32,000 nt of DNA, from NCBI GenBank assembly GCA_002952755.1, contig CP025011.1:120001-152000 (forward strand). Reading direction: 5' to 3'. The stretch comes from Candidatus Saccharimonadota bacterium. GTDB lineage: Bacteria > Patescibacteriota > Saccharimonadia > Saccharimonadales > UBA4665. This document shows positions 8,297-32,000 of this stretch, in pieces. The notes beneath the pieces were generated by a model. The model saw only the letters and a list, made by a program, of their open reading frames with translations, had not been told where the DNA came from and did not search any database. Every line of letters starts with the position of its first letter. Position 1 is the stretch's first letter. The translations under genes and the position numbers were made by a program.

Positions 8297-8383
8297 ATGT
8301 GATACATGCACTATATATCTTCCACTTCGCCAAGGAACTTTGGTTATACTGTCAGCTATTTTCTTTGCACCGTGTGGCTGAAA

Positions 8384-8459: not shown

Positions 8460-8476
8460 GATCGGTAATGTTGGAA

Positions 8477-8505: not shown

Positions 8506-8569
8506 TTATATGCCTTTTTGTGTTTTACCTCAATTACTGCAATGTAGTGTATCTATTTAAGGACATGTT

Positions 8570-9154
8570 ATGACTGTGAATAGCGAGACGATGAAGATAA
8601 AGGCTGAAGAGCGCTCGGCAATGCTCGCTCAGCTAGCTGCCGACCAGGCCATCGAGGCTGCTGGCAAATTTTTAGGAAGGCATCGTGATTTAGTCGCTAC
8701 TGGAGTGGCGGCGATGATATTCAGCAGAGAACGTGACAGAGTTTACGATGAGACTATGACCGCCCGTATCGAGGGCAATCTCAATGATGACTATAGTCTT
8801 GCTCCAGGATTGGTGGTCTTCTTCACCCAAGCCGGCCATGACGTGCTATGCCAGGCGGCTGTGCGCGAAGCTCAAAAGGCTCCACATCTGGCGGCATACG
8901 CAGCAGCTCTACAGCCAACAGAAGATGGCACAGCTTACTGGTTGGATATGCCATTCGGTACTTATAGTATGGGTGGTGGCAGGGGTGGCTGTCGATTTTA
9001 TGGTGAAGTGGATATGGTAGAAGGTCGTGTAATAGGAGGAAGAGACCCCATAAACATGGGGTATGATGAAATTCTGCGCATAGAAGGGTATAGTGGCGAA
9101 TTTTGGCAAAATCGTAACTTTACACCGCAAGGTACACCGATAGAAAGCAGATGA
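8570..9154 (+). CDS. Hypothetical protein (194 aa)
   Basis: The ORF is long and has an AAGGA SD. I recognise no family. Confidence 0.6.
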   Translation: MTVNSETMKIKAEERSAMLAQLAADQAIEAAGKFLGRHRDLVATGVAAMIFSRERDRVYDETMTARIEGNLNDDYSLAPGLVVFFTQAGHDVLCQAAVREAQKAPHLAAYAAALQPTEDGTAYWLDMPFGTYSMGGGRGGCRFYGEVDMVEGRVIGGRDPINMGYDEILRIEGYSGEFWQNRNFTPQGTPIESR

Positions 9155-9162
9155 GAGTTTGA

Positions 9163-9194
9163 CTGCGGGGCGGCGTTAGAGCCTGCGGTTTTTT
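9163..9194 (+). terminator. Possible terminator (7-bp stem with G-U pairs plus a T6 run)
   Basis: The sequence is CTGCGGG...CCTGCGG followed by TTTTTT. Confidence 0.35.
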
Positions 9195-9269
9195 GGCGCA
9201 GCTATTCCTAGAGTGAGATGTTAGAACTCCTTACTCGAAGCTTGACGAATGACGTAGTACAATAAAGGC

Positions 9270-9896
9270 ATGTGGACCATAGCTGCGGCTTTTGTCGTGC
9301 TGTTAATTTTGATCTTTGCCGAATATTTGTCGCGGCGGGGTGTGCACTCTGAGTTGACACGAAAAATCGTGCATATGATGGTTGGGACGTTCGTGGCCTT
9401 TTGGCCATTTTTCTTAAGTTGGCGCCAGATACAGTTGATGAGTCTGGCGTTTTTGATTGTAGTTTTAGGTTCGCTCAAGCTCAATTTGTTTGAGGCTATT
9501 CATAGTGTCAAGCGGCACACGATGGGCGAAGTACTGTTTGCCTTGGTTATCGGCATGCTTGCGTTCATTGTCAGTAACAAATATGTCTTTGCGGCGGCTA
9601 TGTTGCATTTGAGCCTGGCGGATGGCTTTGCGGCGATTTTTGGTTTGGCATGGGGTGAAGGTAGCGCGTATAAAATCATGGGGCGCACTAAGAGTCTTGT
9701 GGGCAGTTTGGCTTTCTTTTTTACCTCTATGACAATAATGATCTGGTTTGCGGGGTTTAGTCACGTGTCCTACAGTGCGATTACCATCGTGTGGCTACCG
9801 CTTATCGCTACTGTGGCCGAGAACGTGTCGGGCGAAGGCACTGACAATATGGTTGTGCCGCTGTTGGTGGCACTCATGCTCAGCAGTTCCCTGTAG
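9270..9896 (+). CDS. Polytopic membrane protein of the polyprenol (dolichol/phytol) kinase / CDP-diglyceride synthase superfamily (COG0170-like)
   Basis: It has multiple TM helices, an LTRKIVHMMVG motif near the N-terminus and an LADGFAAIFGLAWG motif (GDxxAxxxG type). Confidence 0.6.
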   Translation: MWTIAAAFVVLLILIFAEYLSRRGVHSELTRKIVHMMVGTFVAFWPFFLSWRQIQLMSLAFLIVVLGSLKLNLFEAIHSVKRHTMGEVLFALVIGMLAFIVSNKYVFAAAMLHLSLADGFAAIFGLAWGEGSAYKIMGRTKSLVGSLAFFFTSMTIMIWFAGFSHVSYSAITIVWLPLIATVAENVSGEGTDNMVVPLLVALMLSSSL

Positions 9897-9922
9897 CGGG
9901 CAAGTAGATTATACTGAAGAGC

Positions 9923-10300
9923 ATGATGATTCTCGCGATGCTGTCGTGGTGGTATACCACGGGCTGGGCGCGTGTAGCGAAACGTGTTGGAATGCGGATT
10001 ACGGCGACACTCGAAACTTTTTCCGTAGGATTGCTCCTCGGTACACTATTTTCACCATTTCGCCAGATTAGTGCTGGAGCAGGGCGGGGCGGCTCGCTGG
10101 ATGTGCAGTTGAGAGCGTTTGGCGACCGACTCTTCTCGAGGGTCTTTGGCGCCCTTGTGCGTTCGCTGTTTGTACTTATCGGTTGTGTTGCCTCGCTGGT
10201 GGTTGCACTCTTCGGCTCGGTACTGCTGGTTGCTTGGCCGCTGATGCCCCTTACCCCTGTTATTGGTATTGGGTTGGCTGTAGCAGGGGTGCGCTTGTGA
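9923..10300 (+). CDS. Small membrane protein (125 aa, ~3 TM)
   Basis: It has hydrophobic segments and TATACT-N7-ATG upstream. Its TGA overlaps the GTG of the next gene (GTGA). Confidence 0.6.
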   Translation: MMILAMLSWWYTTGWARVAKRVGMRITATLETFSVGLLLGTLFSPFRQISAGAGRGGSLDVQLRAFGDRLFSRVFGALVRSLFVLIGCVASLVVALFGSVLLVAWPLMPLTPVIGIGLAVAGVRL

Positions 10301-12711
10301 ATAATCAGCCTTTTTATAACTACCGGAGCAAGCGTTCACAGCAGGCTCGTATCGCGCAGCGTCTTGGGCGAAGCCAGGTGTATCAGCTGCTTATCGCAAC
10401 TGGTCTGATACTCGCTGCAGCACCGGTAGCACTGATAATCCTGTGGCACATGCCGCTATTGTGGATCGTTGCCGGTTTTGTCGGGCCACTGTGGGTGGCG
10501 GCGGCTTGGAGTCACAGTCTACGCGAATTGCCGCCGAATCCAACTGTCCAGACAATTGACGATATGCTTGCGGTGGAGATACTCGGCGTTCTGCCGGAGA
10601 ACCACACGCCGCATCAGCTAGCCCAGATTGTGATGAATAGTGGCGGTGGCAGGTTCTTTGCGGCACGATTTGGCTTGGGCCCAGATTTCCTTAGCTCGCT
10701 TGTGAGCAACCAGCCGGGAGATAGTGTCCGGGTATGGAATGAGGCAAGCGCTCTCAGTAGCCAGTTGCACGTATCGACAATTGATGCGTCTATTCTGACT
10801 GCTGCCTTAATTCGCACCATCCCTGGTGTTGACCAGTATCTGGCCCAAGGGCGACTTGGCGCAGACGATATTGTTGCCGGTGCTGAGTGGTATAAGCATT
10901 TACAGGAAGTCATTGCCGCCTCCAAAAAACGAGGTCACGACGGCGGTATTGGCCGCGATTGGGCCTTTGGCTTCACGCCCATCCTGGAGCGATTCGGTTA
11001 TAACATCAGTATGCATATCCATACCAAAGGCGTGCTGCAGTATGATTTGCCGAGTCGCAGTGCGCTTGCTCAGCAAATGACCCATCTATTGGCACAGGGT
11101 GGCCGGCGGAATGTGGCGCTGGTTGGGGGCTTAGGAAGTGGCAAGACGTCGGTGGTACATGCGCTGGCAAAAAAACTACTCGAGGCCAACCCGAGTATTC
11201 CACGCGAGCTGCACTATCATCAGATTGTCGCGCTCGACCCTTCCACGCTTATTGCTCAGTCGCCTGGACGGGGCGAGTTGGAGTCGCTGGTGCAGCGCCT
11301 TTGCTATGAGGCGCTGCAAGCCAAGAATATTATTTTGTTCTTGGACGATGCCCAGTTATTTTTTGAAGATGGTAACGGCGCAGTAAACCTGAGCAATGTA
11401 CTGCTGCCGATCCTTGAGGGCGGCGCGCTGCGTATCATTTTAGCCATGGATGAACAGCGTTGGCTACGCATTGCCCAGGGAAATGCGGCACTCACGCAGT
11501 ACATGAACCGGTTAGTAGTGCCGCCTACCGACGAACACGAAACGATGCTCATTCTGGAAGATCAATTGCTGTTATTTGAGTACCATCAAAAAGTTACTTA
11601 CACCTACCAGGCGGTCGAAGCGGTGTATGGCTTAAGTAGCCGCTATTTGAGTGAGCAAGTGATGCCCGGTCGTGCTCTCAAGTTGCTCGAAAGTGCAGCC
11701 AACTGCTCAGAGCAGGGGCTAGTCACCCACCGATCGGTCGAGCAGGCCATTGAACAAACCCAAGGAGTTAAAGTAGGCACTGCTGATAGTGCCAGTGAGC
11801 GCCAGACATTGCTCAATCTGGAAGAATTGATCCATAAGCGTATGATCAATCAAACGCGCGCCGTGCAAGTAGTGAGTGATGCGCTGCGCCGGGCCCGGGC
11901 TGGTGTGCGCGAATCGGCGCGGCCCATTGGCACTTTTTTGTTCCTTGGCCCTACTGGTGTTGGTAAAACGGAGCTGGCTAAAAGTGTGGCAGCGGTGTTC
12001 TTTGGCGGCGAAGAGCATTTGGTACGGCTCGATCTCAATGAATATTCCACTCCCGGCGACGTTTCAAGGCTCATTGCTGACGCTGCTCAAGACCAAAACA
12101 GCCTTACTGCGCAGATCAGTCGCAACCCCTTCAGTGTGGTGTTGCTCGACGAGATCGAGAAGGCCCATCCGGCAGTGCTCAATACTTTGCTGCAGCTGCT
12201 TGACGAGGGCATCTTGCGTGATATTAACAATCGTACGGTGTCATTCCGTGACGCCGTTATCGTCGCTACGAGCAATGCCGGGGCAGATCGCATTCGCGCT
12301 CATATCGAGGCCGGTCAGGAACTTGACCAGTTTGAGGAGCAGTTTACTAATGAGCTGATTAACGCCAACGTCTTCCGGCCCGAATTTTTGAACCGTTTTG
12401 ACGAGATCGTATTGTTCCGTCCCCTTAAGCCCGAAGAATTATTGCAAGTCGTCGATCTTATTCTGCAGGGCCTCAACAAAAATTTGGCTGCTCAAAAAGT
12501 TACCGTTGCGGTTGATCAAGATGCCAGACAGCTGTTGGTGCAAGCTGGCTTCGATCCGCGTCTTGGTGCGAGGCCGATGCGCCGCATGGTACAGCGGGTG
12601 GTAGAAAACATCGTGTCCAATCAGTTGCTGAGCGGCCAGGTAGGTCCTGGCGGGCAAGTCCATATAACCGCTGGCGACGTACAGATTATGCTGCAGCGGG
12701 GCAGGCAATGA
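10297..12711 (+). CDS. Clp/Hsp100-family double AAA+ ATPase with an N-terminal two-TM anchor
   Basis: D1 Walker A is GGLGSGKTS. D2 Walker A is GPTGVGKTELAK and D2 Walker B is VVLLDEIEKAHP, followed by TSNAG and RPEFLNRFDEIV motifs. A Clp-N-like repeat is present (ILTAALIRTIPGVDQYLA). Two hydrophobic helices lie at about aa 28-70. The start is taken as the GTG at 10297 because the track start at 10183 would overlap the upstream gene by 118 nt. Confidence 0.8.
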   Translation: MNNQPFYNYRSKRSQQARIAQRLGRSQVYQLLIATGLILAAAPVALIILWHMPLLWIVAGFVGPLWVAAAWSHSLRELPPNPTVQTIDDMLAVEILGVLPENHTPHQLAQIVMNSGGGRFFAARFGLGPDFLSSLVSNQPGDSVRVWNEASALSSQLHVSTIDASILTAALIRTIPGVDQYLAQGRLGADDIVAGAEWYKHLQEVIAASKKRGHDGGIGRDWAFGFTPILERFGYNISMHIHTKGVLQYDLPSRSALAQQMTHLLAQGGRRNVALVGGLGSGKTSVVHALAKKLLEANPSIPRELHYHQIVALDPSTLIAQSPGRGELESLVQRLCYEALQAKNIILFLDDAQLFFEDGNGAVNLSNVLLPILEGGALRIILAMDEQRWLRIAQGNAALTQYMNRLVVPPTDEHETMLILEDQLLLFEYHQKVTYTYQAVEAVYGLSSRYLSEQVMPGRALKLLESAANCSEQGLVTHRSVEQAIEQTQGVKVGTADSASERQTLLNLEELIHKRMINQTRAVQVVSDALRRARAGVRESARPIGTFLFLGPTGVGKTELAKSVAAVFFGGEEHLVRLDLNEYSTPGDVSRLIADAAQDQNSLTAQISRNPFSVVLLDEIEKAHPAVLNTLLQLLDEGILRDINNRTVSFRDAVIVATSNAGADRIRAHIEAGQELDQFEEQFTNELINANVFRPEFLNRFDEIVLFRPLKPEELLQVVDLILQGLNKNLAAQKVTVAVDQDARQLLVQAGFDPRLGARPMRRMVQRVVENIVSNQLLSGQVGPGGQVHITAGDVQIMLQRGRQ

Positions 12712-17436: not shown

Positions 17437-17514
17437 TGGGGCGAGCTATGGGTCTCGAACCCACGACCTTCGGAGCCACAACCCGACGCTCTAACCAACT
17501 GAGCTAAGCTCGCC
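17437..17514 (-). tRNA. tRNA-His (anticodon GTG) with encoded G-1 and CCA
   Basis: The reverse complement is G-GCGAGCT-TA-GCTC-AGTTGGTTA-GAGC-G-TCGGG-TTGTGGC-TCCGA-AGGTC-GTGGG-TTCGAGA-CCCAT-AGCTCGC-C-CCA. G-1 sits opposite C73, which is the His identity signature. Confidence 0.9.
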
Positions 17515-19753: not shown

Positions 19754-19830
19754 TGGTACCCCGGATAGGATTCGAACCTATGACCTTGAGCTTAGAAGTC
19801 TCCTGCTCTATCCAGCTGAGCTACCGGGGC
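19754..19830 (-). tRNA. tRNA-Arg (anticodon TCT), CCA encoded
   Basis: The reverse complement is GCCCCGG-TA-GCTC-AGCTGGATA-GAGC-A-GGAGA-CTTCTAA-GCTCA-AGGTC-ATAGG-TTCGAAT-CCTAT-CCGGGGT-A-CCA. The anticodon stem has only 3 Watson-Crick pairs. Confidence 0.8.
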
Positions 19831-19998: not shown

Positions 19999-20325
19999 CT
20001 ATTTGCCTTTTTTGAGTTCCTTAAAGCCAACTAATGCAGAAGCTGATAAAACGCTCCAGAATACTATATCAGCAGCTAGACCAAGAGGATATTGTTCATG
20101 ATACGCGTTACCCTTCCATAATATAGATATGGGCTCTACTGAGTTACACAAGCTTACGGAAGGTCTTACTAAAATAATTGGGAAGGGAAGCCCTTTTTTG
20201 ACTTGATGAAGCCCGGAAACTTCACATCCCTCAAAAGATGATTGGCGATTAAAAAGCAATGTAGCAGCCGTAAGCAGGCATGCAAAAGTTAGGATACCTA
20301 AAGTAGAGAGCGATACCTTTTTCAT
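19999..20325 (-). CDS. Small membrane/secreted protein (108 aa)
   Basis: It has an MKKVSLSTLGILTFACLLTAATLL signal/TM segment and a C-terminal hydrophobic segment. An AGGGA SD lies upstream. The gene is AT-richer than the core genes. Confidence 0.5.
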   Translation of the reverse strand: MKKVSLSTLGILTFACLLTAATLLFNRQSSFEGCEVSGLHQVKKGLPFPIILVRPSVSLCNSVEPISILWKGNAYHEQYPLGLAADIVFWSVLSASALVGFKELKKGK

Positions 20326-20377
20326 AGTTAAATTCCCTACGAGCATCTCATTTGCTTATACTTGCAGAACTCAGAAG

Positions 20378-20452
20378 TGGTGCGGGTGGGGAGAGTCGAA
20401 CTCCCGTAGCCAGTTTGGAAAACTGGAGTAATGACCGTTATACCACACCCGC
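20378..20452 (-). tRNA. tRNA-Gly (anticodon TCC), CCA encoded
   Basis: The reverse complement has acceptor GCGGGTG/CACCCGC, anticodon arm CCAGT-TTTCCAA-ACTGG and T arm GGGAG-TTCGACT-CTCCC. Confidence 0.9.
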
Positions 20453-20857: not shown

Positions 20858-21017
20858 GGTTCATGGGCTAAAAGCCACAACAAAGAAGCATAAGCGATAT
20901 ATGGTATACAATATGCTTTACAAATCTGCATCAAAGGTGTATAGTTGGCAATGAAGAATTGAGCTGTGGGTTATTCTATTGACTTAATTCCGGTTCTGGT
21001 AAACAAAGGGAGATACA

Positions 21018-21167
21018 ATGTACGGAAGAATTCTGGGCGCTAGCACTGGTGTAGGTACCGCAGCAGTTGCCACGATCCTGCCAAACACGGGCAGCAACAT
21101 GGTCATCGACGTCGCTATTTCGGTAGCTGCGGGTTTGGCCGTTTGGGGCTTTTTGTCTCGTCGTTAA
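21018..21167 (+). CDS. 49-aa micro-protein consisting essentially of an LPXTG-type sorting signal (LPNTG + hydrophobic segment + RR)
   Basis: It is too short for the ORF track and was translated manually: MYGRILGASTGVGTAAVATILPNTGSNMVIDVAISVAAGLAVWGFLSRR*. An AAGGGAG SD lies 6-7 nt upstream and an in-frame TAA at 21000-21002 blocks any upstream extension. Confidence 0.6.
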   Translation: MYGRILGASTGVGTAAVATILPNTGSNMVIDVAISVAAGLAVWGFLSRR

Positions 21168-21193
21168 TCCTTTAAAGGAACGAGAATAACGAA

Positions 21194-21412
21194 ATGACAC
21201 GGTGGTTTAGTCAGCCGTTCACACATATTAAGCGAGGGGTAACCTCGCTTTTTGTGTGTTTTATAGCGGTTTTGCCAATTCTATTATTCGGATACTGGGC
21301 TTACTCATCAGCGCAGGCTGTGGCATCACGTCACAAATCACATGCGGCGGTTGCCTCTCCTATCCAAACAGTACAGCGGATGAATACTCAAATAACGACG
21401 GTGGATTTCTGA
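21194..21412 (+). CDS. Small single-pass membrane protein (72 aa)
   Basis: It has a TM segment, LFVCFIAVLPILLFGYWAY. Its stop lies 1 nt before the glycosyltransferase ATG. Confidence 0.5.
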   Translation: MTRWFSQPFTHIKRGVTSLFVCFIAVLPILLFGYWAYSSAQAVASRHKSHAAVASPIQTVQRMNTQITTVDF

Positions 21413-21413: not shown

Positions 21414-22562
21414 ATGTGCATTACGGAAACTGAACACGAAATAGGGAAAGTAATCCTGCGATCTGCTACGAAGAAGCGAGCCCGTAAGCCGCGCAAGCGC
21501 CGCATTATGTTGGCTTTATTGATCGCGGCCCATAACGAAGAGCTAGTGCTTGAGAACACTATTCGTTCGGCCATCAAAGCTGGTATGAACCCCAAGGATA
21601 TGTACGTCGTTGACGATAATTCGAACGATGATACCAGCAAGATTGCTAAAAGCATACTTGGCAAAGACCACGTTATCAAAGTGCGTCGCAGTGGCAAGGG
21701 TTTGGCTGTTACTAAAGCAAATAAACACTTTAAATTAAGTAAGCGCTATCGTTGGATTCATATTGCTGACGCCGACGGTGGCTTTGCAAGCAATTATTTT
21801 GCCGTCTTACGTGCGGCGTTACGTCCCGACTATGCTGCAGCCAGCGGCTTTGTGCGCAGCCTGCCGGGCGGTAATGTGGGGCAGTTCCGTGTCTTTGAAT
21901 ACACCTTTGGCCAAGAAATCCATAGGCGTTTTCAGGCCATGATGGGCGCCGTAACGGTAATTCCCGGACCCACTTCTATTTTCCGCTCAGATGTCTTCGA
22001 AAAAGTAAACTTTGCAAACCATTCGTTAACTGAGGACTTCGACGTCACGCTGCAGATTCATCGCCAGCGCCTGGGCAGGATTCAGTTTATTCCGCAGGCT
22101 ATGGCATACACCCAGGATCCACGCACCTTTGGAGACTTCACCAAGCAGGTAAGCCGCTGGAACCGCGGACTCATGCAAGGTTTTTTGACCCACCGCATTG
22201 GCCGGAAGGCGCAGCGCATTGATTTCTACCTGACATATCAGGTGCTGCAGAATATTGCCTTCTTTCTGAGCTATTTCCTCGTGCTCCCTTTCATGGCAAT
22301 TTCGCACCACTCTATAACGGTTGTAGCCGTGGCCTTCTTATATGACGTTGCTGTACTGCTCCTTTTAGTACTCCTGACGGCTATGCGTGCCGGCCGCTAC
22401 GATATTCTAAGTAACTTCCCGCAGATATATACGCTGCGTTGGGTGACGCTAGGCATATTCTTACGCTCGTTCTTCGAAGTCGTATTCTTACGCAAATTCA
22501 AAGGTCCTCAAGGCGCCTGGGACACCGAAGGCCGCCGGTACAAACAAACCGTTACGCTATAG
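21414..22562 (+). CDS. Family 2 glycosyltransferase, processive beta-glycan synthase type (PgaC/IcaA/cellulose-chitin synthase-like)
   Basis: It has LIAAHNEE, VVDDNSNDDT, ADADGG and TEDFDVT motifs and a QVSRW (QxxRW) motif, followed by C-terminal TM helices. Confidence 0.85.
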   Translation: MCITETEHEIGKVILRSATKKRARKPRKRRIMLALLIAAHNEELVLENTIRSAIKAGMNPKDMYVVDDNSNDDTSKIAKSILGKDHVIKVRRSGKGLAVTKANKHFKLSKRYRWIHIADADGGFASNYFAVLRAALRPDYAAASGFVRSLPGGNVGQFRVFEYTFGQEIHRRFQAMMGAVTVIPGPTSIFRSDVFEKVNFANHSLTEDFDVTLQIHRQRLGRIQFIPQAMAYTQDPRTFGDFTKQVSRWNRGLMQGFLTHRIGRKAQRIDFYLTYQVLQNIAFFLSYFLVLPFMAISHHSITVVAVAFLYDVAVLLLLVLLTAMRAGRYDILSNFPQIYTLRWVTLGIFLRSFFEVVFLRKFKGPQGAWDTEGRRYKQTVTL

Positions 22563-22631: not shown

Positions 22632-23420
22632 TTAGAACCAGCTTTTGATGGCGGACCAGAGGGAGGTGCTGTGATCGGCGCCTGGGATATCAGTTTTGGA
22701 GGGCTTGACTGTCGGTCTGGCGGCAGGTGCAGCGGTTGTATGGGCAGGTGCAGGGCTGATTTGCTTGGCGTGGACGACCAGGCGATTGGTACTGGTGCCG
22801 ACAGGGGTGCAGGTGATGAGTGACAGCGTTGGAGTGGCGGCTTGGTTGAGCACGCTCAAGTCGTCGGGTGAGATGACCTTCGTGTCGGTAACTTGGTAGA
22901 CATAGGCGATGCCCTGGTAGTTGATCTGCAGTTGGTCGCCAACCTTAACCTTATCGAGCAGCGTAAATATCCACTTATAGTCGCCAGGCGCCCATGGTTG
23001 GCCGCTGCTGTGGCCAACGATAACGACGGTCCCGTTCTGCCCGGGCAAGGCGGTATTGCCGTAGTGGACAGTGCCGTGCCGCAGAGCAATCTGCACCTTC
23101 CACTCAACGGTAGACGGTTCGTCAAAGACGATGGGCGCATTAACGTTAATAGAAGGAACGACCAGTGAGGATGGTGCATTGGGATCGGCTTTAGGCGTGG
23201 ATGCAATCGTTGCTGAAGCGACGGGTGGATGGGGGATAATAATCGCCGCGGCGCTATTGCGCCCGGCAAAGGCATAGTGAATGCGTGCCCATATGAGCTC
23301 GCCGTTGAGCAATCCGAGTACGCCAGCCATAACGGTCACACCAATAAGAGGCGGCACGATATGCTTGCGGAACGAAAAGGGCATCTTAGGTACTTTAGGC
23401 CGTGCGGGCTTATCCGACAT
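22632..23420 (-). CDS. Sortase (transpeptidase) with an N-terminal membrane anchor
   Basis: It has a VGHS catalytic His region, an LSLITCTP (TLxTC) Cys motif and a downstream conserved Arg (NRLVVHA). The TM segment is IVPPLIGVTVMAGVLGLL. The start at 23420 (MSDKPARPK) is preferred because TATACT lies 9 nt upstream. The track start is 23483. Confidence 0.85.
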   Translation of the reverse strand: MSDKPARPKVPKMPFSFRKHIVPPLIGVTVMAGVLGLLNGELIWARIHYAFAGRNSAAAIIIPHPPVASATIASTPKADPNAPSSLVVPSINVNAPIVFDEPSTVEWKVQIALRHGTVHYGNTALPGQNGTVVIVGHSSGQPWAPGDYKWIFTLLDKVKVGDQLQINYQGIAYVYQVTDTKVISPDDLSVLNQAATPTLSLITCTPVGTSTNRLVVHAKQISPAPAHTTAAPAARPTVKPSKTDIPGADHSTSLWSAIKSWF

Positions 23421-23524
23421 ATTACGCATAGTATACATTAATATAGCTATTTTTGCAATACCTCCCTGGCGAGACAATATCACGAAACTAAATCTTGTTA
23501 TTTTTAAGGAGAGGGTTGCTTCTT

Positions 23525-23619: not shown

Positions 23620-24375
23620 ATGCCTACAGTTAATTTTATTGAAAGTGCACCCCCAGAAGGCCTTGCTGCCTACGTAGAAGCTTTTTGGCATTGTCAGATT
23701 ACAGAAAAAGGTGCGATTCGGCTATTGCCTACAGCTTGCAGTGAACTTATGGCTTGCTACACCTCGCTTGGTAATAGAGTCGTGCTAGTTGGACCAATGT
23801 CAGTTTCACAAACCGCTCATGTTACCCCGGGTGAATTATTTGTGGGTGTCCGTTTCAGGCCTGGATGTCAAATCACACTTCAGCAGCAAGGCTATACTTC
23901 GCTAAAGGATACAAAAGTCTACGGACGTGCCACAAACTCAACTCTCGTAAACGATTTTGAGACTGACATGCAGTCTATGGCTACGCCCGAAGCAGTCAAA
24001 ATACGCTTGCAATCCTTAGTTGTAGCTCTAGTCGCTCAAAGACGTATTGTACGCGATGCAGTAATTGACGATTTCCTTTCCATGTCAGAAGCTCGTTCTG
24101 GTCACATAAAAATCAAGGACTCATTGAAAGATTTACCGATTAGTCCTCGTCAATTCAGACGCCGTTTCAAGCAGTATACAGCTTATACGCCAAAAGAGTT
24201 TCTCCGTCTGTGCAGGCAGCAACGAGCGGTCGCTGAGCTAAAAAAGACGAATGCCACCATAACTGATATAGCAGCAAAACACGGCTACGCAGATCATGCT
24301 CATTTTTCTCATGAGTTCCGCGCACTGGTAGGGATAGCGCCCATGGCGTTTGAGAAAGAGTTAACACTCAAGTAG
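23620..24375 (+). CDS. AraC/XylS-family transcriptional regulator
   Basis: It has a C-terminal HTH_18-like region (SPRQFRRRFKQYTAYTPKEFLRLCRQQRA...ITDIAAKHGYADHAHFSHEFRALVGIAP). TATACT-N9-ATG lies upstream. Confidence 0.85.
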   Translation: MPTVNFIESAPPEGLAAYVEAFWHCQITEKGAIRLLPTACSELMACYTSLGNRVVLVGPMSVSQTAHVTPGELFVGVRFRPGCQITLQQQGYTSLKDTKVYGRATNSTLVNDFETDMQSMATPEAVKIRLQSLVVALVAQRRIVRDAVIDDFLSMSEARSGHIKIKDSLKDLPISPRQFRRRFKQYTAYTPKEFLRLCRQQRAVAELKKTNATITDIAAKHGYADHAHFSHEFRALVGIAPMAFEKELTLK

Positions 24376-24457: not shown

Positions 24458-25036
24458 ATGGCACATATTGTACTTTTTCATTCAGCATTGGGCTTGCGAC
24501 CCGGTGTGCATAATTTTGCAGAACAACTGCAGAAGGCAGGCCATGTCGTGACCACGCCTGATTTATATGGCGGTGAAGTCTTTGAAGATTACAAAGCCGG
24601 CAACAAAAAATGGTTCTCTATGGGGATACCAGCCATAATGCAGCAAGCACAGACGATAGCGGCAGAGCTATCCGGTAATCTGGTATTTGCAGGCTTCTCC
24701 AATGGGGCAGCTATAGCCGAACTCCTAGCAGCTACACACCCTCAAGCCAAAGCGGCCTTACTTATGCATGGAGCCTTACCGCTTGACATGTTGCAAGTAG
24801 CAAAGTGGCCCAAACATGCGCCAGTGCAACTTCATTACAACAACAAAGATCCCTTCCGAAATCCTGACAATGACGCTGCTCTTAAGGAGAGTGTGCGAGC
24901 GAGCGGGGCGTCGTTTGAGGAATTCTTGTACGAAGGCCATACACATCTTTTTGCCGACCCTGACTTACCGGATTATTCTCAGGAATCTGCCGAATTGATG
25001 CTTGAGCGTGCGCTACATTTTCTTAAGCAGACGTGA
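24458..25036 (+). CDS. Dienelactone-hydrolase-like alpha/beta hydrolase
   Basis: It has a GFSNG nucleophile elbow and a GHTHLF His region. Its size (192 aa) and layout are typical of the DLH family. Confidence 0.7.
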   Translation: MAHIVLFHSALGLRPGVHNFAEQLQKAGHVVTTPDLYGGEVFEDYKAGNKKWFSMGIPAIMQQAQTIAAELSGNLVFAGFSNGAAIAELLAATHPQAKAALLMHGALPLDMLQVAKWPKHAPVQLHYNNKDPFRNPDNDAALKESVRASGASFEEFLYEGHTHLFADPDLPDYSQESAELMLERALHFLKQT

Positions 25037-25184: not shown

Positions 25185-26090
25185 TCAGTTTATGGTATTG
25201 TCGCCGAGTGAAGTGGTGATAATGTTTTGCCAGGGTCCGTTTGGGACGCTTGTCTGGCTAACGAAAACCCAGTCGACAGCATCGACATCTTGCAGATTAA
25301 GATAGTCACGTACAGCAGGAGAAACATCCAAGCCAGCTTTAGCGTCGAACGTATTGATTGGGTTGGCGGTCCCGAAGACGTAGACGGTGTCGTCGGTAGC
25401 ATACGGGCCGGTATCTTCCCACTGTGCATAGGCGATTCTGTCGCCGTGGCGAATAGCAATCCAGGCGTTTTTACACCAGGAGTATTTGCTGCTGCTATTT
25501 TTGAGCGGGCAATTGCTGGCGCTGCTCTTGCGCTGGCTGTTGTCGGCGATGTCGGTATACGGCAGTGCGAAATAGAAGGGGTTCTCGCGTGGGGTAAAAC
25601 CGGCGGGGTAGTAGCCGCTACGATTAGAGGGGGCATCAGGCCCCCCGTAATGAGCTTGCCACTGGCTATCCCAGGAGCTGGGTACATTCGAGATATAGGC
25701 GTTATCGGCATCGGCTGGCTCGCCTACCCAGAACCAGGTGGTGGTGATGTGTAGGTGTGAGAAGGTCGACAGCGGTGCTGGTACTAATGGTTGTAAAGTA
25801 TGCCCCGTCTGAGACGTGTCCGAGGGAGTGTGAGCCATCAATCTACTATTCTCAGCCGACCCATTGAGCGAAGAGAGGCCCGGCAAACTGGGGCCGGGGT
25901 GGGGTATGTACGTTCTGTCTTTTGTAGCTGTCAGCCCTAGCTCATCCTGTTGCATTGAAACAGAGGACAATGGCCACAAAAATGGCCCGCCGATTATTGC
26001 AGCGGCAAGCAGACACACAGCGGCAATTCCAAACCAGGAATGCCGCTGTGTGGCTTGCCCGAACCGATTGTTCTGGCGTCTGACAATCAT
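25185..26090 (-). CDS. Secreted/anchored protein with a possible double-psi beta-barrel (RlpA/expansin-like) C-terminal domain
   Basis: It has an N-terminal signal anchor (WFGIAAVCLLAAAIIGGPFLW). The C-terminal pattern AYAQWEDTGPY...GLDVSPAVRDYL resembles the DPBB motif (D.GP....DLS.aA). Its start lies 1 nt after the stop of the upstream deacetylase gene. Confidence 0.5.
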   Translation of the reverse strand: MIVRRQNNRFGQATQRHSWFGIAAVCLLAAAIIGGPFLWPLSSVSMQQDELGLTATKDRTYIPHPGPSLPGLSSLNGSAENSRLMAHTPSDTSQTGHTLQPLVPAPLSTFSHLHITTTWFWVGEPADADNAYISNVPSSWDSQWQAHYGGPDAPSNRSGYYPAGFTPRENPFYFALPYTDIADNSQRKSSASNCPLKNSSSKYSWCKNAWIAIRHGDRIAYAQWEDTGPYATDDTVYVFGTANPINTFDAKAGLDVSPAVRDYLNLQDVDAVDWVFVSQTSVPNGPWQNIITTSLGDNTIN

Positions 26091-26091: not shown

Positions 26092-28638
26092 TTACAACTG
26101 AGGCTGGATCTCGTTCAGGGCTTGGTTGAGCGTTTCGACGGTGACGCCCGCTTGCTGCATGCTTGCTAATTCGGTATCCAGATGGGCTGGGGTAATTGAG
26201 TAGTCCTCTTGGGCGGCGGAAGGGTCTGCTTCAACGCCGTGATACACCAGCACTAGCCAGGTCTTGTCGTGCTGAGCTTGGGCGACCCACGCGGCTACCT
26301 GAGCGGGTGTGGTGCCATCTAAAATGTTTTGGACGCGGATGTTGTAGAAGTCAAAATCGCCCTTGCTGTTAAAGCCGTCGTCAGTTGAGCGGTGTGAGCG
26401 GAAGTACTTTTTGGCTTCGGTGAGCACGGTGCCATTGTATTCGCCATATGGAGTGGCGAAGTTCGCGCCTACTACACCGTCATTGCCAAACCAAGTCCGT
26501 AACTGTGCTTGGCTGTTGCCCATCTCGGCATCAATTTTGGCAACTGTCAGTGTAGGTAGGTGGGGATGGGTAACAGTATGGTCGGCAATTTCGTTGCCGT
26601 CGTTTTTAAGGGCTTGCATCATGGCCACGGTCATGTACTCGGGGTCCTGACTGGTGCTGCTGATGATGTAGAAGGTGGCCTTCATGCCGTATTTGTCGAG
26701 CAGCGGCAGAGCGTTCGTGTAATGGGTGCGCAGGCCGTCGTCAAAGGTGAGGGTGACCAGGGGGCGGTTGAATTGTGCAGGTGTGTATGGCGCAAGGCTG
26801 AAATCGTCATTTTGTACCCAGCCAACCTTGCTGACAACCTGGTAGAAGGTGATCGTTTTGGCAGTGGCAGGCGCGACAAACTGCGCTTTTACTTGGGTCC
26901 AAGCAGTCGGGCTCGCGGGCGCAGTGCCGACGTAGTAGTAGGATACGGTGCCGTCGGCGGCAGTGACCTGGGCGTCGACTTCGCTGTCAATGTTGGACTC
27001 GTACCAGTTGGTGTATTGATAGTTGGTGCCAGGGGTAACAGGTACTTCATCGAAGTACCACTTGGCATCGCCATTGGTGTAGCTGGTGATGGTAGTTTTG
27101 AGGCTGTGTGTGCCGGTATGCCCGGTGTTCTGGTAGGTGGCGCTATGGGTGTTGGTCCCCCAGCTGCCATCGTGCCAGTTGCTGGGGAGGCTATTGGTGT
27201 TCGTTTCGACCGATGGATTCGGGATGAGATTCGTTGCCGCAGGTGGGGTGACTGGTGAGTTGTTTACGGTGACTACGACAGGGGCTGAGGTGGTAGACAG
27301 GTGCGCGCCATTGGTAGCAATCGCCGTAAGCGTGTGGCTCCCGTTGGAGGCCGTCGTTGTATCCCAGTTTAGGCTATAAGGCTCGCTGGTAAGCGGGCTG
27401 CCGAGGTTAGTTCCGTCAAGCTGGAACTGAACCGAGGAGACAGCGACAGCATCGCTAGCGTGGGCGGTGATAGTCTGCGAAGCGCTCAAGGTGGCATTAT
27501 TTGCGGGGCTGGTAATATTTACGCTTGGTGCTGTCGGGTTGTTCACAGTGACACTCTCGGTGGTTGTGGCAGTTAGATTGGCACTGTTGGTGGCAACGGC
27601 GGTGAGAGTGTGAATGCCATTGGTAGTTTTCGTAGTATCCCAGGCAAATGTGTAGGGCGCAGTTGTTGCCAGCGCGGCATTCGTGCCGTCCAGCTTAAAT
27701 TGGACTGAGGTGATTCCTGTGGCATCGCTGGCGTTGGCTGTAACGGTGGTCAGGCTGTTAACAGTGCTATCTGCTGCTGGTGCCACAAAACTAATTGTAG
27801 GTGTGGTCGGAGGCGACACGTTATTTACATTCACCGTAACGTTGGTTGCAGTCGTGGTCAGATTGGCGGTATTAGTGGCAACGGCGCTGAGGGTATGCGT
27901 GCCATTGGCCACCTTAGTGCTGTCCCAGGCCGTGGCGTAAGGTGCACTTGTAACAGGCGCACCGAGGTTGGCTCCATCCAGTTTAAATTGGACTGAGCTT
28001 AGGCCTTGAGCATCGCTAGCGTTAGCCGCCACATTCACGGCCGAACCGCTCACTGTGGCATTTGCCGTAGGCGAAGTCATGGCTACAGTGGGTGCGGTCG
28101 GCGTGCTGCCTGGACCGGTTAATGAATAATCGTCAGTCGTCAGTGAGCCGTTGGCAAAGATAACATGAAAGAAGGTTAGGCTGGCCGCGTTAGCGGGAGT
28201 AGTGAAGGCGTAGCTGGTCTGCTTCCAAGTGCTGCTGCTGGCCGCATTGCCAACCCAGTAGTAGCTGGTGGTGCCGGTGGTAGTTGTCACGACGGCGTCA
28301 ACTTCGCTGGCGACAGTGCTTTTGTACCAGTCGCTAAAGGTGTAAGCGGTATTGGCGGTAACGGTAACCGGCGAAAAATACCACTTGGCATCGCCACTTG
28401 TGTAATTTGCAAGGGCCACCGTCGCACTACGTGCGCCAGTGTGGCCTGTGGTGGCGTAGGTGAAGGTGGTAGTATTGGTGCCCCAGTTGCCTTTGTTCCA
28501 GCCGGCTGGAGATGCTCCATTGGCGGTTTCAAATGATGGGTTAGCGACTAGATTGGTTGCAGCACGCGCATTGGCCAGTGGCAGTAGGCTGGCAGCAATA
28601 AGAAATAGGCCTGCCAGCAGTGATCTTACTTTTTTCAT
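26092..28638 (-). CDS. Secreted multidomain polysaccharide deacetylase: signal peptide, CBM-like module, 3 Ig-like repeats, second CBM-like module, CE4/NodB domain
   Basis: The signal peptide is MKKVRSLLAGLFLIAASLLPLANA. Two paralogous modules have the pattern NL.(A/P)NPS.ET...GDAKWYF. Three repeats have the pattern SVQF(K/Q)LDG.N...PY...WD.T...NG.HTL.A.ATN. The NodB motifs are TFDDG and HTVTHPH. Confidence 0.88.
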   Translation of the reverse strand: MKKVRSLLAGLFLIAASLLPLANARAATNLVANPSFETANGASPAGWNKGNWGTNTTTFTYATTGHTGARSATVALANYTSGDAKWYFSPVTVTANTAYTFSDWYKSTVASEVDAVVTTTTGTTSYYWVGNAASSSTWKQTSYAFTTPANAASLTFFHVIFANGSLTTDDYSLTGPGSTPTAPTVAMTSPTANATVSGSAVNVAANASDAQGLSSVQFKLDGANLGAPVTSAPYATAWDSTKVANGTHTLSAVATNTANLTTTATNVTVNVNNVSPPTTPTISFVAPAADSTVNSLTTVTANASDATGITSVQFKLDGTNAALATTAPYTFAWDTTKTTNGIHTLTAVATNSANLTATTTESVTVNNPTAPSVNITSPANNATLSASQTITAHASDAVAVSSVQFQLDGTNLGSPLTSEPYSLNWDTTTASNGSHTLTAIATNGAHLSTTSAPVVVTVNNSPVTPPAATNLIPNPSVETNTNSLPSNWHDGSWGTNTHSATYQNTGHTGTHSLKTTITSYTNGDAKWYFDEVPVTPGTNYQYTNWYESNIDSEVDAQVTAADGTVSYYYVGTAPASPTAWTQVKAQFVAPATAKTITFYQVVSKVGWVQNDDFSLAPYTPAQFNRPLVTLTFDDGLRTHYTNALPLLDKYGMKATFYIISSTSQDPEYMTVAMMQALKNDGNEIADHTVTHPHLPTLTVAKIDAEMGNSQAQLRTWFGNDGVVGANFATPYGEYNGTVLTEAKKYFRSHRSTDDGFNSKGDFDFYNIRVQNILDGTTPAQVAAWVAQAQHDKTWLVLVYHGVEADPSAAQEDYSITPAHLDTELASMQQAGVTVETLNQALNEIQPQL
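27259..28101 (-). repeat. Three tandem ~93-codon Ig-like domain repeats inside the deacetylase gene
   Basis: Protein-level repeats at aa ~180-273, 274-367 and 368-460 were read from the translation. Confidence 0.8.
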
Positions 28639-28758: not shown

Positions 28759-28858
28759 CCCCCTGCCACCTATATGCAGCAGAGTCAGGCGTAGTGCAAC
28801 CAGACCGACTTTAGTCGGCCTGCGTGAAAACGCTCTGCTGCATATAGGTGGCAGGGGG
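28759..28858 (+). repeat. Hairpin element copy B: perfect 26-bp inverted arms (28759-28784 / 28833-28858) around a 48-nt core
   Basis: The arms CCCCCTGCCACCTATATGCAGCAGAG and CTCTGCTGCATATAGGTGGCAGGGGG are exact reverse complements. The core is TCAGGCGTAGTGCAACCAGACCGACTTTAGTCGGCCTGCGTGAAAACG. Confidence 0.85.
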
Positions 28859-28910
28859 CCCTTCGCTACCCCTCTTGCGCCACGATCCAGAAAGGTTACT
28901 ATACGTATAT

Positions 28911-30374
28911 ATGAATAACTTCGTCTTTTTATTGTCCCACTATCCGCTGGGGCATGCCTTTGGAGCGCGCTACGAGTTGCCTATCCCCTTGGTATTGTTC
29001 GTACTTGGAGGCGGTGCTGTCGTGCTGCTATCTTTTTTGCTCGTGGTACGGCAAAAGGTTGCTCCGGCCTCTGCTGCCGAGTATCCTGACACAACACATG
29101 TGCGAGGTATACAGGGTTTTTGGGCTGCTTTGAGCCTTTTGGTTCTTACAGCGTGTATTACTGTGGGTATAGCGGGCAGCCAGGAGGCTGCAGAGAATAT
29201 TGTGCCAACGTTATTTTGGCTGATTATATGGATTGCCGTGCCGCTTTCAGCCGGTATTGTAGGTGACTGGACACAAGTAGTTAACCCTTTTGCCATTGTG
29301 GCAAAACTTACCGATAACAGGGCACTCCGTAAACGTGCGCTTCTTCGGGAAGCATCGCTTGCCTGGCCGGTTCGCGTGGGTTGGTGGCCGGCTGTTGCTG
29401 TTTTTTTCATACTGGCATGCGGCGAACTGATTTATAACCAGACGGTCACACGGCCAGTAGTTATTGGCGCAGGACTCTTGATTTATTTTGTACTGAGTGC
29501 TTTTGCCGGTCTGGTCTATGGCAAACAGTGGCTGGAGTGCGGCGAAGTGTTTACGGTGCTATTTGCAACGTGGGGGCGGCTAGGTTTTTTCCGTTTTGGC
29601 GCTCCGGGACGCCGAGGTTTTGCGGGTGGGTTGCAGGTGCCTTTTGAGGCTAGCGTCAGTCGCGTTACGTTTGTGTTGCTGCTCTTAGTAAGCGTGGGTT
29701 TCGACGGCCTACTTTCTACACCGCTGTGGAGCCGCATGCAGCATCACTTGCCGAACGGTCTGGCAGTGGGGACGACGGCTTATCTATTGCTGGCAACACT
29801 TATTTTTGCAGCCTTGGCATTCGTCTTTTGGGCAGTATTTAGCTTACTGGCCCTGGCAGTAAGCAAAGTGGGCGTACACAAGCTGGGTGCCACACCCGCA
29901 CTGGCGGGATTACTGCCGTCGCTGGTGCCAATCTCCTTTGGCTACTTGCTGGCGCATAATCTGGAATATTTAGTGCTCAATGGTCAGCTTTTATTTCCGC
30001 TTATCGGTAATCCCGTAGGCAAAGAAAGCTGGCCAATCCATCTGCCACACCCCTTCAATGACAGTTTCGAGCCAAACCGGCACCTGCTGCCCAGCTCTTT
30101 TTATTGGTATGCCTCGGTGATTGTTATTGTGATTGTGCACATTGTGGCTGTCGTATTGGCGCATCGTTACCTGGGTAGAGCCACTAAGAATGAAGAGCAA
30201 GCGCGGCGGTCGGAATATCCGTGGATTGTGGCAATGGTGGCCTATACGATGTTCAGCTTATGGCTCCTGGCTCAGCCGTTAGTCAAAGAAAAGGCGGACG
30301 AAACGGGCATCGCGCCAACCCGTCAAACTGTGGCTGTTGCCCAAACTAATGCGGTGATTACAGTAGATTATTAG
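28911..30374 (+). CDS. Large polytopic membrane protein (487 aa, ~12 TM), unknown function
   Basis: Hydrophobic segments run throughout the protein. The track start at 28848 (GTG) lies inside the right arm of hairpin copy B, so the ATG at 28911 (MNNFVFLLSHYPLGH..., with TACTAT 8 nt upstream) is preferred. Confidence 0.7.
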   Translation: MNNFVFLLSHYPLGHAFGARYELPIPLVLFVLGGGAVVLLSFLLVVRQKVAPASAAEYPDTTHVRGIQGFWAALSLLVLTACITVGIAGSQEAAENIVPTLFWLIIWIAVPLSAGIVGDWTQVVNPFAIVAKLTDNRALRKRALLREASLAWPVRVGWWPAVAVFFILACGELIYNQTVTRPVVIGAGLLIYFVLSAFAGLVYGKQWLECGEVFTVLFATWGRLGFFRFGAPGRRGFAGGLQVPFEASVSRVTFVLLLLVSVGFDGLLSTPLWSRMQHHLPNGLAVGTTAYLLLATLIFAALAFVFWAVFSLLALAVSKVGVHKLGATPALAGLLPSLVPISFGYLLAHNLEYLVLNGQLLFPLIGNPVGKESWPIHLPHPFNDSFEPNRHLLPSSFYWYASVIVIVIVHIVAVVLAHRYLGRATKNEEQARRSEYPWIVAMVAYTMFSLWLLAQPLVKEKADETGIAPTRQTVAVAQTNAVITVDY

Positions 30375-31749: not shown

Positions 31750-32000
31750 CTACATCTCGTTGAAGATGGTGATATGGGCGCCAAGCGAGTTGAGCCGTTC
31801 GGCAATTGCCTCATATCCACGGTTAATGGTGTACACATTACGCAGTGTTGATATGCCATCGGCGGCGAGCATGCCGATGAGTAGTAGGCTAGCGGGGCGC
31901 AGAGCAGGCGGGCACACCACATTAGCCTTGCTGAATTTAGTGGGACCTTGAATATACAGGCGGTGCGGGTCGGCCAACTCCACTTGCATGCCCACCTTGG
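31750..32000 (-). CDS. murA: UDP-N-acetylglucosamine 1-carboxyvinyltransferase, C-terminal part (gene continues past the window end)
   Basis: The C-terminal sequence ...PPALRPASLLLIGMLAADGISTLRNVYTINRGYEAIAERLNSLGAHITIFNEM* matches the conserved MurA C-terminus (IDRGYE...L..LGA.I). Its stop codon abuts the CPBP gene stop. Confidence 0.85.
   Translation of the reverse strand, partial: KVGMQVELADPHRLYIQGPTKFSKANVVCPPALRPASLLLIGMLAADGISTLRNVYTINRGYEAIAERLNSLGAHITIFNEM

Follow-up and report, generated by a model that had tools for sequence, protein, structure and literature searches.

Canonical LPXTG proteins combine a C-terminal LPxTG motif, hydrophobic segment and basic tail with a cleavable signal peptide and a passenger, and are served by sortases with a catalytic His, Cys and Arg. 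Here we analyze a micro-open reading frame (micro-ORF) of 49 codons in a 32,000-nucleotide stretch of a Candidatus Saccharimonadota genome (GenBank assembly GCA_002952755.1, contig CP025011.1, positions 120,001 to 152,000 of the forward strand; hereafter the window, whose own numbering is used throughout). Like the canonical proteins, its product, which we term the mini-LPXTG peptide, shows all three parts of the sorting signal and has a His-Cys-Arg sortase encoded nearby, but it has neither a cleavable signal peptide nor a passenger, with only 20 residues preceding the motif. Moreover, the genes for the putative substrate and its sortase occur here as a constant pair within a cluster for glycan synthesis, the transmembrane (TM) segment and tail of the peptide are conserved in sequence, and the sortase scores below every class-specific cutoff. 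We propose, with a probability that we place at roughly 0.55, that the micro-ORF encodes a leaderless, passenger-less donor for the adjacent sortase within a glycan module of Patescibacteria.

The closest concept appears to be the sorting of PEP-CTERM proteins by exosortases linked to exopolysaccharides, yet the motif and the enzyme differ. In that system the processing enzyme (EpsH) is encoded within exopolysaccharide loci, together with glycosyltransferases and PF01522 deacetylases (Haft et al. 2006, PMC1569441). Both systems use a tripartite C-terminal signal consisting of a motif, a TM segment and a basic cluster. However, the motif studied here is LPxTG rather than PEP, the enzyme is a cysteine-transpeptidase beta-barrel sortase rather than a polytopic exosortase, and each locus holds a single tiny substrate instead of many, in a monoderm-like patescibacterial host. 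The glycosyltransferase (GT2) of the window gives weak matches to XrtG- and XrtP-associated glycosyltransferases. PEP-CTERM models do not match the peptide, a MYXO-CTERM model reaches only E = 0.12, and no exosortase occurs among the called neighbors of the peptide loci.

Three further systems share components with this locus. Streptomyces chaplins are small hydrophobic surface peptides, some of them anchored by class E sortases, which cooperate in attachment with the CslA/GlxA glycan, itself made by a cellulose-synthase-like GT2. Unlike the mini-LPXTG peptide, chaplins have signal peptides and a chaplin domain of ~40 residues, with LAxTG on the long chaplins only, and the chaplin, sortase and GT2 genes do not form one cassette. 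The IcaADBC and PgaABCD systems couple a processive GT2 to a PF01522 de-N-acetylase that acts on the exported polymer, with the small TM protein IcaD or PgaD encoded in the same operon; we know of no sortase or LPXTG peptide in these systems and of no covalent anchoring of their poly-N-acetylglucosamine (PNAG). Proteins of the window match TIGR03937 and TIGR03938, but the GT2 falls far below the PgaC/IcaA cutoff (see below). In Nod factor synthesis, the GT2 NodC makes a chain of N-acetylglucosamine (GlcNAc), the PF01522 enzyme NodB frees an amine, and NodA, a cytoplasmic N-acyltransferase that uses acyl-ACP, acylates it. Weak NodC and NodB matches are found among the window proteins, but in this module a peptide would donate the acyl group, and the third enzyme is a sortase that acts outside the cytoplasm; the likeness is entirely hypothetical. 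In the literature on sortases of Saccharibacteria and the Candidate Phyla Radiation (CPR), leaderless substrates, PNAG and amino-sugar nucleophiles, we encountered no account of the peptide family or of its module; a 2026 'Pam pilus' preprint was considered as a match and set aside, as it concerns an unrelated donor-strand-exchange system.

A conserved family of miniature LPXTG peptides

The micro-ORF (21018..21167, plus strand) comprises 49 codons plus a stop, running from an ATG at 21018 to a TAA at 21165-21167, and its translation is MYGRILGASTGVGTAAVATILPNTGSNMVIDVAISVAAGLAVWGFLSRR. No 5' extension is possible, since a TAA at 21000-21002 closes the frame. Residues M1-I20 (21018-21077), referred to below as the N-part, are followed by LPNTG at residues 21-25 (21078-21092), a hydrophobic segment from S26 to S47 (21093-21158) and an RR tail (21159-21164), all on the plus strand. 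The segment across the scissile site of LPNTG reads ...VATILPNTGSNM..., and the C-terminal fragment expected after sortase cleavage would be GSNMVIDVAISVAAGLAVWGFLSRR. An earlier note on this DNA had reported the same start, upstream stop and length, and had read the C-terminus as a sortase sorting signal. The latter reading is supported by TIGR01167 (LPXTG_anchor), which matches residues 21-49 with 19.5 bits (curated cutoff, 15.9); Pfam PF00746 (Gram_pos_anchor), the second anchor model that the note had put forward, gave no match at E <= 0.1. Pattern scans in six frames, covering the window and every fetched locus, detected no further LPXTG-type sorting signal, and no other LPXTG-type ORF near any of the module sortases.

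The gene is preceded by well-formed expression signals. A sigma-70-like promoter with 10/12 consensus matches (TTTACA, 17 nt, TATAGT; 20917..20945, plus strand) lies ~72 nt 5' of the micro-ORF, and the leader that follows it (20946..21017, plus strand) contains the Shine-Dalgarno sequence AAGGGAG at 21006-21012. The earlier note had named this ribosome-binding sequence correctly, but its spacer to the ATG is 5 nt rather than the 6-7 nt given there. A Shine-Dalgarno-like site precedes the start of the homolog in all of the loci compared (24/24), and in 21/24 a promoter with at least 10/12 matches lies 36-116 nt upstream, in a context that recurs across loci as CTTTACAA...TGTATAAT. A riboswitch or otherwise structured leader was considered and rejected, given a fold z-score of -0.06 and the lack of any Rfam match at E <= 1 in positions 20880-21200; a search of the whole window likewise gave no Rfam match at the gathering score.

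The micro-ORF is a real gene that belongs to a conserved family. A word-indexed search covering 5.8 billion proteins yielded three relatives of 52-58 aa, one of which, from a patescibacterial metagenome-assembled genome (MAG), bears the NCBI name 'LPXTG cell wall anchor domain-containing protein'; the window's peptide itself was found in a predicted-protein collection. A four-sequence profile run against 1.84 billion cluster representatives at E <= 0.001 returned 72 representative matches, 71 of which are 32-92 aa long and most 50-65, and ten sampled family members were either unnamed or called 'hypothetical protein'. Scans of genomes and metagenomes, the latter with a 12-sequence alignment, added 18 further loci (7 genome, 11 metagenome). 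The mini-LPXTG family thereby contains at least 78 distinct peptides, mostly of 50-65 aa, and is Patescibacteria-wide: evident mislabels aside, every genome locus comes from a Saccharibacteria or other Patescibacteria MAG. MAGs labelled Nevskiaceae, Bacillota, Limnocylindrales and Methylomirabilota (L009, DATLCF010000001.1; sortase homologs P0077, P0137 and P0173, the last being L036) hold a Patescibacteria-type sortase; the whole module is present in L009 and L036 at 45-63% identity, and the odd taxon labels of all four are probably mislabels or binning errors.

Selection and gene format bear on whether the micro-ORF might instead be non-functional, either the remnant of a degraded surface-protein gene, as the earlier note had suggested among four options, or a chance ORF. 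Nei-Gojobori counts on ten orthologs (45 pairs) gave a lower proportion of nonsynonymous than of synonymous differences in 45/45 pairs (pN 0.14-0.49; pS 0.56-0.87, which is saturated), in agreement with the conservation that the note had proposed to look for. At 10/10 loci examined a stop lies in frame a few codons 5' of the start, and a format of 49-58 codons with such an upstream stop is common to all of them, ruling out a degraded surface-protein gene. Although the ORF is very short, lacks a PF00746 match and adjoins a deacetylase gene that is truncated in this genome, pointing to some local decay, the pN values, the conserved Shine-Dalgarno site, promoter, format and synteny, the TIGR01167 score above cutoff and the existence of at least 78 members in the same miniature format exclude a decayed remnant or chance ORF to the extent that we assign this explanation only a very small residual probability.

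The family divides into at least three subfamilies: subfamily 1, which holds the window's peptide and has the TM core AxAVAAGLxxWGxLY; subfamily 2, with the C-terminus ARLVAKKAYKA; and subfamily 3, represented by P0030. The most conserved element is the sorting motif itself. LPNTG is found in 44/78 members and LPxTG in most others, and among 58 diverse members P22 is invariant and L21, T24 and G25 are each at least 90% conserved. Conservation within subfamily 1 (n = 59) falls from 0.93 in the LPxTG motif to 0.69 in the TM core, 0.52 in the first ten residues, 0.36 in the rest of the N-part and 0.33 in the tail; the corresponding values in subfamily 2 are 0.95 for LPxTG and 0.70 for the tail. 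This prominence of LPxTG implies that processing is central to the function of the peptide.

The N-part spans 17-38 residues in the 78 peptides, with a median of 21. It begins with M-Y in 54/78 members, usually as MYG and often continued by (V/I)LGA(S/T)T. The M-Y(-G) start (21018-21026 in the window) is kept across all subfamilies, and the next ~12 residues vary freely. In the ~10 residues after the N-terminal block the sequence is variable and the composition constrained (A 18.5%, G 17.6%, V 16.1%, T 13.8%), and overall 66% of N-part residues are A, G, V or T.

A sortase and a glycan synthase in the same module

Homologs of the micro-ORF occur in a conserved module of four functions: the peptide, a membrane-anchored PF01522 deacetylase, a processive GT2 synthase and a sortase. 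Subfamily-1 loci are ordered as peptide, a PF01522 deacetylase of ~300 aa with one N-terminal TM helix, a GT2 of ~380 aa and a convergent sortase of 250-283 aa, usually flanked by a secreted Big_7/CBM/deacetylase protein of 750-850 aa and a TM protein of ~300 aa. Subfamily-2 loci place the genes on a single strand, in the order (515-590-aa deacetylase), peptide, ~190-aa sortase and ~426-aa GT2, and in subfamily 3 the peptide is followed by a 206-aa sortase, with the GT2 3 kb off. Counting non-redundant contexts with enough sequence, a GT2 was present in 24/24, and a sortase lay within 3 kb in 15/17 of those reached from the peptide. The gene next to the peptide encodes a PF01522 deacetylase in 20/22 subfamily-1 loci and a TM-only stub in the other two.

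We also approached the linkage from the opposite side. Three homologs of the window's sortase (46-51% identity) on new long contigs were chosen blind to the peptide, and in all three (3/3) a 53-aa family member heads the neighboring deacetylase-GT2 operon. The peptide subfamilies pair with distinct sortase lineages, and both the two sortase lineages (~25% identical) and the two GT2 lineages (22-24% identical) are deeply diverged, indicating that the association is old and does not reflect a single recent gene block. The gene neighbors that the earlier note had listed, together with the synteny with GT2 and sortase genes that it had proposed to look for, thus stand. Among its four options, the sortase-attached mini-peptide appears best supported, judging by the conservation of LPxTG (0.93) and by sortase linkage in both search directions. 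As to its other options, the GT2 link is real and conserved, whereas a glycan acceptor or primer role is conjectural, and a regulator or decoy is conceivable. One observation concerns copy number: L009 contains two deacetylase-GT2-sortase copies ~6 kb apart (1-2189 and 8001-11161), the second of which has a peptide gene, and the upstream end of the first lies beyond the locus boundary.

In the window, the membrane-anchored sortase (22632..23483, minus strand; PF04203, TIGR01076) is encoded convergently with the peptide-GT2 operon, 1465 nt downstream of the peptide gene. Its start is probably M34 at 23384, giving a protein of 250 aa, a form that is present in the database. The protein scores 90.9 bits with PF04203 and 69.8 bits with TIGR01076 (cutoff 39.35), and its GHSSG, LITCTP and TNR segments align with the catalytic His, Cys and Arg of A. 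oris SrtC2 (8t28), its best sequence match in the PDB (1.3e-17). These three residues are invariant in 49 sortase homologs. An AlphaFold2 (AF2) model with a mean predicted local distance difference test score (pLDDT) of 85.9 shows one N-terminal helix and a sortase barrel, and Foldseek matched it to 126 PDB chains at E <= 0.001, the 50 best listed all being sortases. Catalytic residues and predicted fold together indicate that the sortase is catalytically competent.

Assignment to class C, D or E was considered and dropped, since all class profiles score below cutoff and Foldseek does not separate D from C. The class C profile NF033745 reaches 70.4 bits (cutoff 160), the class D profiles NF033746 and NF058671 reach 65.6 (cutoff 165) and 68.2 (cutoff 140), and the class E profile reaches 54.3 (cutoff 160). 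The top Foldseek match is C. perfringens SrtD (4d70; 6.9e-12), with class C structures barely behind (~1e-10); no class C lid segment aligned in a comparison of the window's sortase with 8t28, and NCBI labels some homologs 'class D sortase'. Subfamily-1 sortases carry an invariant, aromatic-rich insertion after the catalytic His (GHSSGQxWAPGDYK; residues ~125-137 of the 250-aa form) that is not in class C or D structures and might shape the acceptor site. As a family-wide acceptor site it was rejected, since the ~190-aa sortases that go with subfamilies 2 and 3 do not have it.

The GT2 gene (21414..22562, plus strand) encodes a processive-type enzyme of 382 aa that matches PF13641, PF13632 and PF00535 above the Pfam cutoffs. 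Its translation contains the motifs DD (VVDDNS), DAD (IADADG), TED (LTEDFD) and QVSRW (KQVSRWNRG), and it has two to three C-terminal TM helices and no N-terminal one, a combination that identifies it as a processive, membrane-embedded beta-glycan synthase; the earlier note had likewise read it as a processive GT2 synthase. The best specific NCBIfam model, PgaC_IcaA (TIGR03937), gives 86 bits against a cutoff of 422.3, such that the protein fails the PgaC/IcaA equivalog test, and BcsA (3e-7) is its only solved relative by sequence. The constant PF01522 partners, together with a GH18 chitinase that adjoins the module in L001, suggest that the polymer is GlcNAc-based. Subfamily-2 GT2 proteins (~426 aa; 6838-8112 in L015) have an N-terminal TM helix, in contrast to those of subfamily 1.

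Between the peptide and GT2 genes lies a 72-aa ORF with a single TM helix (21194..21412, plus strand), which is 44-47% identical to the first ~46 residues of the ~300-aa deacetylases of relatives (E 1e-8 to 1e-12). This similarity marks it as what is left of a PF01522 polysaccharide deacetylase, namely the N-terminal TM anchor. An analogous TM-only ORF of 56 aa, at about 368-535, is found in L023, whose peptide is 51% identical to that of the window. The catalytic domain has thus been lost twice, apparently independently, with the anchor kept intact both times. The anchor by itself may serve some purpose, perhaps that of a GT2 partner resembling IcaD or PgaD. In subfamily 1 the distance from the end of the deacetylase or stub gene to the start of the GT2 gene is 1-2 nt (21412/21414 in the window), suggesting translational coupling. 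Inside the 72-aa ORF, a terminator-like hairpin at 21230-21259 consists of AAGCGAGGGGTAACCTCGCTT followed by TTTGTGTGTT; it could lower read-through, leaving the peptide in excess over the enzymes, or it may arise from the conserved stretch that encodes IKRGxTSLFVC.

Topology, processing and candidate acceptors

For the proposed donor role we envisage the following steps. The consensus promoter and Shine-Dalgarno sequence would make the 49-residue peptide abundant. Without a signal peptide, it would enter the membrane in the manner of the Pf3 coat protein, via YidC, with the N-part outside and the basic tail inside, as its charge, hydrophobicity and paired cysteines suggest. The sortase, held by its N-terminal TM anchor, would expose its catalytic domain on the outer side, cut between Thr24 and Gly25, and hold MYGRILGASTGVGTAAVATILPNT as a thioacyl intermediate, in line with established sortase chemistry. 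The 24-residue peptide, rich in Gly, Ala, Val and Thr, would then be passed to an envelope amine, a step to which the gene linkage points. By precedent, the likeliest acceptor would be the stem peptide of peptidoglycan or lipid II; to our knowledge, all characterized housekeeping sortases use such amines. That the peptide gene is so firmly linked to genes for a polymer synthase and a de-N-acetylase suggests one surface structure of peptide and polymer. In it, the peptide may cooperate with the product of the GT2 and deacetylase, a GlcNAc-type polymer that has lost part of its N-acetyl groups, and could for instance, bound to the wall, dock or organize this polymer.

The features of the peptide resemble those of known leaderless membrane proteins. 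YidC inserts small membrane proteins such as the Pf3 coat protein and the M13 procoat. Pf3 coat, which lacks a signal peptide, has a basic C-tail on the inner side of the membrane and a short N-tail, uncharged or acidic, on the outer side. The mini-LPXTG peptide is of similar size (~45-50 residues) and likewise has one TM segment, but it shows no sequence relationship to these phage coat proteins and would be a sortase substrate. Its short N-tail, single TM segment, basic C-tail, charge bias and paired cysteines all fit the Pf3 type; a hairpin, discussed below, is the less probable alternative. On direct reading, the 20 residues before the motif do not form a cleavable Sec signal peptide, and no Pfam domain, hence no passenger, was found in the N-parts of 17-38 residues.

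Charge and cysteine patterns across the 78 peptides bear directly on orientation. The C-tail is net positive in 76/78, and the N-part carries a net charge of +1 in 31, 0 in 29 and -1 or lower in 17, with no K or R at all in 39/78. There is consequently no consistent positive n-region (the charge is zero or negative in 46/78), and hydrophobicity is low. N-part cysteines number zero in 67 peptides, two in 10 and one in a single peptide, a degree of pairing reached in 0/200,000 permutations in a test that ignores the relatedness of the sequences. CPR bacteria have extracytoplasmic disulfide machinery (PMC6744442), and together with the paired cysteines this favors an exported N-part. We therefore favor, from these family-wide patterns, leaderless N-out, C-in insertion of the Pf3-coat type, which may also explain the missing signal peptide to which the earlier note had drawn attention. 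The two-cysteine members are P0005, P0017, P0026, P0040, P0047, P0054, P0057, P0061, P0062 and P0067, with the cysteines 3-9 residues apart; the first of the pair often takes the place of the conserved Ser of LGAS(T), and this Ser/Thr/Cys position might be a modification site.

A different topology would turn the peptide into a hairpin tether. Here the N-part would be a weak membrane span, both ends would be cytoplasmic and the LPNTGSN loop would lie outside, in the M13-procoat manner, such that the wall or polymer is covalently tied to a membrane-embedded 24-residue peptide, an anchor analogous to Braun's lipoprotein. Such an arrangement would account for the absence of both a passenger and a separate signal peptide. 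N-part lengths do cluster near one span (median 21), their variable sequence is limited to A, G, V, T and L, as in h-regions and TM segments, and about half of the members have a K or R at positions 4-6. The AF2 model of the peptide also shows helices at 2-19 and 28-48 joined by a loop at 20-27. However, this model, with a pLDDT of 64.6 obtained from only 4 sequences, is unfit to decide topology, and the N-part is weakly hydrophobic, with a mean Kyte-Doolittle value of 0.91 and a best 15-residue window averaging 1.49, compared with 2.37 for the C-part. Furthermore, 17/78 N-parts are net negative and 29 neutral, and a pattern of either no or two cysteines is the mark of exported, disulfide-bonded segments and not of TM helices. 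On balance we regard the hairpin as improbable.

The composition of the module raises another possibility, concerning the acceptor. The sortase might join the peptide not to peptidoglycan but to the C2 amine of a glucosamine bared by the deacetylase on the GT2 polymer. The product would be a conjugate of a ribosomal peptide and a polysaccharide, following the logic of NodC, NodB and NodA with the sortase in the place of NodA and the peptide in that of the fatty acid. The four functions co-occur in three peptide subfamilies and with two lineages each of sortase and GT2; the predicted site of deacetylase, sortase and peptide N-part alike is the outer side of the membrane, on which the polymer emerges; and every enzyme would perform its canonical chemistry, with only the nucleophile being new. 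S. aureus SrtA reportedly ligates LPXTG peptides to amino-sugars in vitro (work attributed to Samantaray et al., JACS 2008). Several points count against such ligation. The deacetylase adjacent to the peptide is a TM stub in the window and in L023, although the 848-aa deacetylase of the window is near, and L031 has no PF01522 gene within 6 kb. The polymer is itself putative, given the low PgaC_IcaA score, and peptidoglycan anchoring suits the gene linkage equally well. We also know of no natural sortase that uses a sugar amine. Sugar ligation thus seems unlikely to us, and peptidoglycan is the acceptor that we prefer for the donor peptide.

The donor role itself has to be weighed against a number of observations. 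Canonical substrates have a signal peptide and a passenger and the mini-LPXTG peptide has neither; its N-part is about as long as one membrane span, and the helical-hairpin AF2 model, to the extent that it can be trusted, makes the N-out topology insecure. Two contexts, L027 and the P0023 contig, have no sortase within 6-10 kb; in L027, a genuine exception, a sortase profile built for this analysis gave no match within 6 kb. With regard to the glycan, the adjacent deacetylase lacks its catalytic domain in the window and in L023, and precedent alone would favor peptidoglycan over other amines as the acceptor. Finally, the TM core (0.69) and the subfamily-2 tail (0.70) are conserved beyond what a stop-transfer segment would need, a hint that the uncleaved peptide, or else the C-terminal fragment, does something in its own right.

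This last point can be extended into an explanation in which the membrane part is the functional one. The uncleaved peptide or its C-terminal fragment would serve as a subunit or regulator of the GT2, like IcaD or PgaD, or as a signal resembling C-pep, and sortase cleavage would be a switch instead of an anchoring step. Precedents exist in IcaD and PgaD as small synthase subunits and in streptococcal C-pep sensing. Besides the conservation of AxAVAAGLxxWGxLY and ARLVAKKAYKA, such a role would be consistent with the lack, in subfamily-1 GT2 proteins, of the N-terminal TM helix found in subfamily 2, and with the retention of the deacetylase anchor after two losses of the catalytic domain, which suggests that small TM partners matter in this operon. 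A pure TM subunit, however, leaves the conserved N-terminal MYG and the composition of the N-part unaccounted for, the strongest conservation falls on LPxTG, making processing central, and no conserved sensor kinase was found among the called neighbors. We therefore rate this explanation lower still than the hairpin or the sugar linkage. A sortase-assembled pilin was also considered and rejected, as the peptide has no conserved lysine and 20 residues are too few for an Ig-like (CnaB/CnaA) fold.

Flanking genes and significance

The module is accompanied by further envelope-related and other genes in the window. A secreted polysaccharide deacetylase of 848 aa (26092..28638, minus strand), composed of CBM_4_9, three Big_7 domains and PF01522 (Pfam: Big_7 4.4e-52, Polysacc_deac_1 6.1e-27), is the sole intact deacetylase near the module here, and homologs of it are adjacent in most subfamily-1 loci. 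Next to it lies a conserved 301-aa protein with one N-terminal TM helix (25185..26090, minus strand), which has homologs beside the cluster at 47-65% identity in L001, L009, L013, L014 and L026 and no match in Pfam, NCBIfam or the PDB. This protein, the ~300-aa companion of the subfamily-1 module, has a well-conserved C-terminal domain of ~190 aa. The sortase gene is separated from the genes for the 301- and 848-aa proteins by those for an AraC-family regulator (23620-24375) and a dienelactone-hydrolase-family protein (24458-25036); the latter pair is missing from L001 and other relatives and looks like a lineage-specific insertion into the module.

A MurA-like homolog is encoded at the right edge of the window (31753-31998, minus strand), where it runs off the edge. 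In relatives (L001, L015, L028 and L032-L037), a fusion of ~507 aa that joins a helix-turn-helix (HTH) domain to an EPSP_synthase-family, MurA-like domain lies by the module, often accompanied by SHMT, MurB and a Mur ligase; such an HTH-MurA fusion is in itself unusual. A 508-aa ORF at 28848-30374 was considered as its counterpart in the window and rejected, as it has no Pfam match and the true homolog is the gene at the edge. Just upstream of the promoter region, three tRNA genes are found on the minus strand (17437-17513, 19754-19830 and 20378-20452; His-GTG, Arg-TCT and Gly-TCC), and a 115-aa ORF among them (19999-20346) gave no family match.

Sortases are enriched in CPR bacteria/Patescibacteria (PMC6744442), where their cargo is essentially obscure, and this locus offers a concrete, minimal and conserved pair of sortase and substrate for the group. 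At 49 residues, the putative substrate is small enough for synthesis. Its gene is coupled to those for a glycan synthase and a deacetylase, and cell-wall genes of the murA and murB type adjoin the module in many relatives. As the peptide lacks both the signal peptide and the passenger that textbooks expect of sortase substrates, annotation should accept a wider range of substrates. The new element here is a putative sortase substrate of minimal size and without a leader that is embedded in a module for glycan synthesis, and it points to a route of building the cell surface that has not been described.

The consequences depend on the acceptor and topology. Were the acceptor the deacetylated glycan, the product would represent a new class of peptide-polysaccharide conjugate made by a new natural sortase chemistry, and, if such ligation proved true, Patescibacteria would have a second surface polymer of the 'peptido-glycan' kind, one that is genetically encoded. 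In the hairpin topology, if true, the polymer would be covalently tethered to a membrane-embedded peptide. Under the conservative reading, the locus is a candidate module for a surface structure in organisms that depend on the envelope for their episymbiotic lifestyle.

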